Assembly: GCF_058153355.1 (NCBI RefSeq)
Contig: NZ_CM177019.1
DNA: 64,000 nucleotides
Strand: one strand, 5' to 3'
The notes under the pieces are model-generated. The model saw nothing but the letters and a program-made list of their open reading frames with translations, had not been told where the DNA came from and did no database searches. Positions within the stretch are counted from its first letter, which is position 1; every line of letters starts with the position of its first letter. Positions 3,470 to 4,422 of this stretch are shown piece by piece. The position numbers were made by a program, and so were the translations under genes.

Positions 3470-3683
3470 TCTCTGACGTTTTCCGGGTGACGCTGGTCGC
3501 CCGGATTACAGTTGATAGGGTGTGACGACACCTGCTATTCCCGCAAAATCTCTCGTATTTTGCGAGGCGTTTTCCAGATATGATGTAACAGTTGCAATTA
3601 TTATAAGTTCAAGTAAAACAACCTTGTATTAATACCAGAATAAGGGGATCTGGTTTTTATATTCAAGAATAAAAAATTTTTTG

Positions 3684-3902
3684 TCATTCCTTATGCTCCT
3701 TACACTGATCATCGACACCCACTGTCTCCCCCTTTTGCCTGCCTCCCTTTGCTTTACGCACAGGGAATTGCTGACGTTCCAGATATTGCTCTACCGCTTC
3801 GCGTAAAATTGCAGATCGTGAAACCTTACGCCAGCCCCTAAGCTTGTTCAGCCGTTTAATTGTCTCTTCTGATAAATGAAGAAAAACCGTATTCATCGTC
3901 AT
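3684..3902 (-). CDS. Small ribbon-helix-helix (CopG-like) protein, YiiE/YiiF family
   Basis: ORF track 3684..3911; trimmed to the MTMNTVFLHL... Met (72 aa). Basic RHH-like N-terminus; position between fdhE and yiiD matches K-12 yiiE/yiiF. Cannot tell which paralogue it is. Confidence 0.6.
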   Translation of the reverse strand: MTMNTVFLHLSEETIKRLNKLRGWRKVSRSAILREAVEQYLERQQFPVRKAKGGRQKGETVGVDDQCKEHKE

Positions 3903-4422
3903 TGCCACCACCTAACATATATTACTCATTAATGTATGTGCGAAAATTACGCCGAAAAATCATTTAAAAAAAGCGGATTTTTGCATGCTGTTTTGTTTTT
4001 GCGAGACGTTTTCCAGAAATAATAAGAACGTTGCAGTTGTTTCATTTGTTAATCAAAAATGGTTTGGTTATCGCCCAGGATGAGATATGGGTGCTATAAA
4101 TATATTATATTCAGGGATATTTATTTTTTGATTGGGTCTTCATTTGCATAATCTGAATGGTGTACCCGAAAAACGTCAGCATCCTAACAGCACCAGGATT
4201 TAAGGTGAAATTTAACATCCATCACAGACCGGTCAATGCTGCCGCCAACCGGTCTTTACTTGCTCGTCGTTATAATTTTGTGGGTAACAGTTCGGGAAAC
4301 AAGGAATTCCTTCCGGAACACCCCGGTATCATCCGATAGCATTGACGTCAATCATCAGCGCGACGGTGAGTTTTTTTAATCGAATCATAGGATGGTAACG
4401 TTAAGCACGATTACGGGTCATA

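Follow-up and report, generated by a model that had tools for sequence, protein, structure and literature searches.

In Escherichia coli the CRP-S motif, given as T4G5C6G7A8-6N-T15T16C17C18A19 (Sinha 2009, as quoted in PMC6728893), joins two unlike half-sites, both of which are required, and the orientation of the site is irrelevant (Sondberg et al. 2019, PMC6728893). Transcription from such sites needs Sxy as well as cAMP-CRP, and CRP by itself binds them weakly. At the sxy promoter, P_sxy, the conserved half-site is promoter-proximal, and the contact of CRP with RNA polymerase is class I-like (PMC6728893); at ppdD both CRP binding and a 90-fold induction by Sxy have been demonstrated (PMC1635313). 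The closest described toxin-antitoxin system is E. coli hicAB, which, as described in PMC6957337 and PMC8138530 (Turnbull & Gerdes 2017), has a distal CRP-S/Sxy promoter, P1, that is not repressed by the antitoxin and a proximal promoter, P2, that is repressed by the operon's own antitoxin. A similar two-promoter arrangement has been proposed for toxTA of Haemophilus influenzae, also a toxin-antitoxin operon under a CRP-S promoter but one from another genus, with different protein families and a symmetric CRP-S motif. Here we analysed a stretch of 64,000 nucleotides from contig NZ_CM177019.1 (assembly GCF_058153355.1; hereafter the window), which represents the Escherichia fdoHI-fdhE/fabY (yiiD) region and contains an imperfect direct repeat on either side of a small gene, yiiE. 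This repeat is probably a duplicated distal control region with a CRP-S core, one copy of which was orphaned by a deletion of yiiF and vapC, and the other of which would serve an Sxy/CRP-dependent distal promoter of yiiE, as in hicAB.

The open reading frame of yiiE (3684-3902, minus strand) encodes a 72-residue ribbon-helix-helix (RHH; CopG/RHH_1) protein (Pfam RHH_1, E = 6.5e-12); it carries the name yiiE in the annotation of the closest genome and has no toxin partner in the window. The direct repeat on both sides of this gene, described in an earlier note on this DNA, was recovered by repeat finding and by alignment. Copy A (3558-3602) and copy B (3997-4041), both read on the minus strand, match at 35 of 45 positions (78%) with a spacing of 439 nucleotides, a separate alignment agrees, and the core is indeed 20/21 identical, with a single differing base. 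The location given for the repeat also stood, except that the 42-nucleotide strings quoted in the earlier note finish at 3599 and 4038, short of the stated 3600 and 4045. Across 200 dinucleotide shuffles of the 1 kb around the repeat, the best 45-nucleotide window had 25.5 matches on average (standard deviation 1.0, maximum 31), and the 21-nucleotide core TTTTGCGAGRCGTTTTCCAGA occurs twice in the window with up to three mismatches, compared with 0.00 occurrences expected from 100 shuffles. Copy B is the distal upstream region of yiiE, ~95-140 nucleotides before the ATG at 3902, and is orthologous to positions 2939-2983 of the K-12 locus (L003), whereas copy A is the distal remainder of the region upstream of a deleted yiiF. 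A second, weaker repeat pair at 3657-3681 and 4105-4129 (minus strand; 76% identity) marks the far-upstream part of the duplicated unit (~440-450 nucleotides), which is thus longer than the earlier note saw.

By sequence, the 21-22 bp core is a member of the CRP-S motif. The site in copy B spans 3997-4018 on the minus strand (TTTTGCGAGACGTTTTCCAGAA on the plus strand), with TGCGA-N6-TTCCA at 4000-4015, and the orphan site in copy A spans 3558-3579, also on the minus strand (TTTTGCGAGGCGTTTTCCAGAT), with the same pattern at 3561-3576. The half-sites are 6 bp apart in both copies (TGCGA-GGCGTT-TTCCA in copy A and TGCGA-GACGTT-TTCCA in copy B), and these are the two exact matches to TGCGA-N6-TTCCA in the whole window, where 0.12 would be expected. 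As in asymmetric CRP-S sites, position 6 is a C, giving TGCGA and not TGTGA, and the second half-site is of the less conserved TTCCA type. The copy B site is intergenic, 97 nucleotides upstream of the yiiE ATG, and its conserved half-site (TGCGA/TCGCA) is promoter-proximal, as at P_sxy. The copy A site is itself intact; what used to follow it, the promoter-proximal DNA and the gene, has been lost.

Known and candidate CRP-S sites of K-12 resemble this core, those of sxy and ppdD closely. The ppdD promoter region reads ...AACGCCTCGCAAAT, with the site TTCTTCGTAACGCCTCGCAAAT, of which 13 nucleotides, AACGCCTCGCAAA, are identical to the K-12 yiiE/yiiF core; the sxy site is TTTCGGAAAGAGCCTCGCAAAT, and for sxy and ppdD together 13-18 nucleotides are shared with the core. 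The corresponding sites are TTTTGCGAGACGACTCGCA at chpS, TGGAATCGCGCTTCCA at higB and TTTGGAACGTCCCTCGCAAAA at prlF, the last lying ~125 nucleotides before the ATG and followed by a proximal operator and a TATAAT. The comparison with sxy (Jaskolska & Gerdes 2015; PMC6728893) is the closest one: both sites are 22-bp and asymmetric, with TGCGA and a weak TTCC(G/A) half, both lie ~100-130 nucleotides from the start codon with the conserved half-site promoter-proximal, and TTTCGGAAAGAGCCTCGCAAAT differs from the yiiE core of E. albertii at only 2-3 positions. However, Sxy dependence has been demonstrated for sxy and is a prediction for yiiE, no TTGTC-type -35 element follows the yiiE site, and the window has this site twice, with one copy orphaned. 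The sole invariant block in the upstream regions of Citrobacter, Superficieibacter, E. albertii, K-12 and the window is this site, T.TGGAAA.CG.CTCGCAAA, and changes in the core between lineages are confined to the spacer or the weak half-site.

The two copies go back to a gene duplication. In K-12 and EDL933 the gene order is fdhE, yiiF, yiiE and then variable DNA, and the repeat is 78-100 nucleotides long, with one copy upstream of yiiF and the other upstream of yiiE; the comparison with K-12 that the earlier note had called for thus finds the repeat before both genes. The two K-12 units, each an upstream region plus gene of ~450 nucleotides, align end to end, with 27/30 identity over the core, 23/30 just downstream of it and 10-22/30 elsewhere, including the coding sequence. 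The proteins YiiE and YiiF are 40% identical and have diverged DNA-binding N-termini. Homology over the full length of the units, together with this level of protein identity, indicates that yiiE and yiiF are an old tandem duplication in which the core is the best-preserved segment. Judged by these alignments, yiiE and yiiF are a tandemly duplicated pair of antitoxin-type genes and the repeat is their distal upstream region, present once for each, much as the earlier note had supposed in reading it as duplicated promoter sequence of such a pair. The gene yiiE is a tandem copy of yiiF, a vapB-type antitoxin gene, and has diverged from it. The Citrobacter locus, with the order hydrolase, core, yiiF-like vapB, vapC and fdhE, has an RHH gene before the PIN gene that is YiiF-like over its whole length. 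We infer that the ancestral layout resembled it, with a hydrolase gene, one control site, vapB(yiiF)-vapC and fdhE, and that in Escherichia a ~450-nucleotide unit of upstream region and RHH gene would then have been duplicated to give yiiE upstream of yiiF. In E. albertii (L006, 3001-3219) and some E. coli lineages (L009/L010, 3001-3225) the RHH gene is chimeric, with a YiiE-type, DNA-binding N-terminus and a YiiF-type C-terminus, a structure that fits unequal crossing-over of yiiE with yiiF within the conserved LREAVxQYL stretch and removal of copy A by it.

The earlier note had also suspected that one member of the pair was gone, and yiiF is missing from this genome. The window lacks ~590 bp of K-12 sequence, comprising a repetitive extragenic palindromic (REP)/bacterial interspersed mosaic element (BIME), yiiF and the promoter-proximal half of the yiiF upstream region, and homology to the K-12 yiiF-yiiE spacer starts exactly at window position 3558. 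Directly at this edge lies the 3' stub of a PIN-domain (VapC-type) toxin gene (3506-3559, minus strand), recognized from its translation, with 18 codons, 17 of which read NTRDFAGIAGVVTPYQL before the stop. This peptide aligns with the C-terminus of intact PIN proteins in E. albertii (L006, 3219-3593; Pfam PIN, E = 4e-19) and Citrobacter youngae (L059, 1552-1932), whose genes overlap the stop codon of the RHH gene. The deletion junction is at ~3556-3563, with the microhomology CGCAAAA/CGCGAAA, and the same type of junction is found in 678 of 5,426 complete E. coli genomes, including sequence type ST1193. A deletion of ~0.6 kb ran from the edge of the yiiF control-site copy to codon ~107 of vapC, taking the proximal promoter of yiiF, yiiF itself and most of vapC. 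In K-12 the first codons of vapC and a longer 3' remnant are kept around the REP element. Because the window retains 15 nucleotides of vapC that K-12 has lost, the toxin decayed independently in the two lineages. In E. coli O26:H11 (L005, 1670-2650), the REP-containing fdhE-yiiF spacer carries an insertion of IS621, of the IS110 family. REP sequences are a known target of IS621.

As read from this junction, copy A is an orphan relic beside a toxin-gene stub, and copy B still precedes yiiE. Copy A is presumably inert, because everything downstream of it except the 18-codon stub and a hairpin is gone. A VapBC-type module, in which an antitoxin gene is directly followed by a PIN toxin gene, is not found at yiiE in the window: the RHH_1 gene is present with only the 18-codon PIN stub, which belonged to the deleted yiiF and not to yiiE. 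The orthologous loci of E. albertii and Citrobacter do have an RHH gene directly followed by a PIN gene. The intact pairs of C. youngae and E. albertii occupy the same slot next to fdhE and have the same upstream 20-mer as the window, and their RHH protein has a YiiF-type C-terminus, with the PIN gene overlapping the RHH stop codon. In the window, in contrast, the toxin is cut to 18 codons, the cognate antitoxin yiiF is deleted and only its paralog yiiE is left. The suggestion that the adjacent AT-rich islet had replaced the missing gene does not hold. The islet (4597-6510) is on the opposite flank of yiiE, upstream of that gene, and EDL933 has it together with both yiiE and yiiF, so it did not replace yiiF. 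Instead, yiiF was lost by a deletion towards fdhE, which took most of the PIN toxin gene as well.

How might the surviving copy act? We hypothesize that cAMP-CRP and its co-activator Sxy (TfoX) would bind the copy B site and activate a distal promoter of yiiE. An AT-rich imperfect palindrome, ACATACA-N11-TATATGT (3915-3939, minus strand), lies just upstream of the Shine-Dalgarno sequence and is a candidate proximal operator and -10 region; it is conserved among yiiE orthologs and perfect (7/7) in E. albertii. Its position by the ribosome-binding site would make it the likelier target of autorepression by the RHH protein. The yiiE upstream region, with its distal CRP-S-type site and proximal palindrome, would thus correspond to the two-promoter design of hicAB. 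However, hicAB is toxin-first and intact, whereas yiiE is an antitoxin-type gene without a toxin. From the literature, a weak peak in a systematic evolution of ligands by exponential enrichment (SELEX) experiment with RpoS holoenzyme falls in the yiiD-yiiE spacer; searches for yiiE or yiiF mentioned together with RpoN, Sxy or ygfZ yielded nothing useful, and a search with the sequence string returned only unrelated primer matches. Several observations weigh against the arrangement we propose. By our own reading, there is no convincing sigma-70 -35/-10 pair downstream of the copy B site, and the candidate proximal operator, being short and AT-rich, could be a palindrome by chance. A 2025 review (PMC11951105) names chpSB, higBA, hokD and hicAB as Sxy-responsive and does not name yiiE or yiiF, and the strict TGCGA-N6-TTCCA pattern did not find the published hicAB CRP-S site. 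Furthermore, the 20-mer, spacer included, is more strongly conserved than typical transcription-factor sites.

Other readings of the core have to be set against a CRP-S site. RHH antitoxins normally repress their own promoters, and the core is the best-conserved stretch common to the upstream regions of both paralogs, so it could be the operator of YiiE and YiiF themselves, as the earlier note had suggested. We consider this unlikely, because the same core also stands before modules with non-RHH antitoxins and before sxy and ppdD, and is an exact CRP-S match. In addition, by our own reading the core lacks internal direct or inverted subsites such as RHH dimers use, it lies 95-115 nucleotides from the start codon whereas the palindrome adjoins the ribosome-binding site, and it has stayed the same while YiiE and YiiF came to differ in their DNA-binding N-termini. 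That the repeat is instead left over, without function, from a recent duplication or gene conversion, the similarity of the core being historical and not selected, is more doubtful still. Such a reading suits copy A, which no longer has its gene and is in all probability inert, and the flanks of the core, which are similar too. However, the coding parts stand at 40% amino-acid identity and the core at 90-95%, and the core is kept at the orthologous place in Citrobacter and Superficieibacter and recurs at unlinked loci. Gene order in several strains brings up a further possibility, namely a recombination or attachment site for successive insertions of toxin-antitoxin cassettes, with a copy left between cassettes: some strains read core, higB-like/nadS, core, yiiE, core, yiiF-vapC, Cedecea has two direct core copies 975 nucleotides apart around a gene, and in several genera one conserved position has variable DNA after the motif. 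We regard such a site as very improbable, since no recombinase gene and no paired inverted arms accompany the motif, the whole yiiE and yiiF units align as paralogs, which fits tandem duplication, and the motif equals a known transcription-factor site that is also present at the core genes sxy and ppdD and in the sdhE/ygfZ spacer. Moreover, only one match was found in 2.9 million viral contigs, which speaks against an attachment or phage-borne motif, and a decay allele of a relBE cassette has insertion boundaries away from the motif. We rejected an integron-like or att-site cassette array on the same observations of no recombinase, no inverted arms and paralogous units.

The gene strand CTGGAAAACGYCTCGCA also has, by our own reading, GG and GC at the spacing of a sigma-54 (-24/-12) promoter, GG-N10-GC. 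With a weight matrix built from 50 sites mapped by chromatin immunoprecipitation followed by sequencing (ChIP-seq; Bonocora 2015, Table 1), however, the cores score -2.6 to 6.6 bits, compared with a training minimum of 7.9 and a median of 15.8, and ~200-300 positions in the window score as well. An A after TGG occurs in 0 of the 50 ChIP-seq sites, and there is no ChIP-seq or genomic SELEX peak near yiiE or yiiF in K-12. With scores below every training site and no K-12 peak, we rejected a sigma-54 promoter and leave it next to no probability. REP/BIME and enterobacterial repetitive intergenic consensus (ERIC)/intergenic repeat unit (IRU) elements share with the core their short length, their intergenic position and their presence at several enterobacterial loci, and some core copies abut REP units, but the true REP/BIME of this locus lies in the block that is deleted from the window. 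The core is not palindromic, has a median of two places per E. coli genome and corresponds to no Rfam family, and we rejected this identity as well. The dispersal across the genome that the earlier note had named as a reason to doubt its reading takes another form here, with two near-exact copies per genome and diverged 20-mers dispersed as a regulatory motif. In a comparison of consensus sequences by eye, none of the sites for MetJ, PurR, Ada, Mar/Sox/Rob (the box of these three), LexA, sigma-E, sigma-32 or sigma-28 fitted the core.

The CRP-S-type 20-mer recurs well beyond yiiE. Near-exact copies occupy a median of two and a maximum of four places per E. coli genome, the two near-exact copies both being at the yiiE/yiiF locus. 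In a scan of 100,044 species genomes, the pattern was loose and ~139 chance matches were expected, so that the scan indicates a strong enrichment in Enterobacterales only, among the matches listed, and is not a census. These listed matches include the spacer between sdhE and ygfZ in E. coli, E. albertii and Salmonella arizonae, a relBE cassette next to cybC, the stretch that follows garD and precedes prlF, rmuC in Rahnella and repeated leaders in Enterobacter. The 20-mer also stands upstream of a higB-like/nadS module beside a hydrolase gene, where only the core is conserved. The antitoxins of the modules it precedes are unrelated (a helix-turn-helix (HTH) protein of NadS type, RelB, PrlF and a Gp49/HTH pair). 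TGCGA-N6-TTCCA is found 95-130 nucleotides upstream of at least six modules, namely yiiE, yiiF-vapC, higB-like/nadS, relBE by cybC, prlF-yhaV and the Gp49/HTH pair. We raise tentatively, as a possibility somewhat short of an even chance, that CRP-S sites are a recurrent and perhaps portable front end of small toxin-antitoxin cassettes in the Enterobacteriaceae. If so, Sxy would command many more "selfish" modules than the reported hicAB, chpSB, higBA and hokD, and the yiiE/yiiF locus would be a decayed member that still reports this wiring.

CRP-S sites, Sxy-responsive toxin-antitoxin operons and decayed VapBC loci are already known kinds. What is possibly new, at the level of annotation, is the reading of yiiE and yiiF as a duplicated VapB with a decayed VapC, the assignment of a CRP-S site to them, and the same candidate site at prlF-yhaV, relBE(cybC), the higB-like/nadS pair and other modules; part of this may already be in Sinha 2009. 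The poorly characterized K-12 genes yiiE and yiiF would gain a history, as duplicates of a VapB-type antitoxin gene whose PIN toxin decayed independently across E. coli lineages, and a candidate regulator, cAMP-CRP with Sxy. At the sequence level, the locus supports the idea that toxin-antitoxin modules have repeatedly come under the competence regulator by way of a distal site, distinct from autorepression by the antitoxin. For annotation, the "repeat flanking a gene" is here a deletion scar plus a probable regulatory site and not the boundary of a mobile element.

The locus is bounded by fdhE (2540-3469, plus strand), a conserved flank that is convergent with the vapC stub and shares with it a hairpin at 3483-3504, and on the other side by fabY (from 6826, minus strand). 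No structured RNA was matched in Rfam between 3300 and 4700 of the window at E ≤ 1. A 16-nucleotide inverted repeat (15/16 complementary) at 3473-3488 (CTGACGTTTTCCGGGT) and 4164-4179 (ACCCGAAAAACGTCAG), with arms 675 nucleotides apart, encloses the vapC stub, both repeat copies and yiiE, and one of its arms abuts the fdhE/vapC hairpin. In K-12 the same pair, with 14/16 complementarity by our own reading, encloses yiiF and yiiE. A rough estimate puts the chance of such a pair at ~0.006 per kb-sized region.

The islet between yiiE and fabY is an AT-rich open reading frame of 637 residues (4597-6510, minus strand) without a match in Pfam or NCBIfam. It is intact in the window, split into two open reading frames in EDL933 and reduced to a 117-nucleotide pseudogene in K-12, and part of it is labelled "transposase" in strain 2020CK-00188. 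In other strains the slot is filled by a hydrolase gene and the higB-like/nadS module. By our own reading, window positions 4390-4500 match the point where the end of nadS meets the start of a gene for a 73-residue protein in the E. albertii and B2-type module (L006, 1945-2040), from which the islet appears to have taken the place of the hydrolase gene, the higB-like gene and nadS, as well as part of the gene that follows.

Further observations concern the other loci that carry the motif. The relBE cassette, between nrdG and cybC, is present in 454 of 5,426 E. coli genomes (strain 7/2: L131, 2475-3081); its identical core TTTTGCGAGGCGTTTTCCAGA lies directly upstream of the operator and a TATAAT, in the opposite orientation relative to the gene, and a decayed allele lacks relB, the promoter and the core. 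In Enterobacter, Lelliottia, Silvania and relatives (L045, L053, L067, L081, L082 and L026), a CRP-S-like 20-mer heads a conserved leader of ~150 nucleotides, often abutting a REP unit, with several copies per genome. The leader is followed by a C4-antisense-RNA-like gene (Rfam RF01695) or by a gene for a ~150-residue protein beginning MATTPKFSY..., which has no Pfam match above threshold. Finally, a LexA-box-like palindrome, CTGTATGGATATACAG (CTGT-N8-ACAG), lies ~20-35 nucleotides before the start codon of the alpha/beta-hydrolase gene (L059, 1130-1146; L089; L006, 1132-1148) and is conserved in Citrobacter, Superficieibacter and E. albertii, in a region that is absent from the window. Given this palindrome, SOS regulation may apply to the hydrolase gene or to the divergent toxin-antitoxin module next to it.

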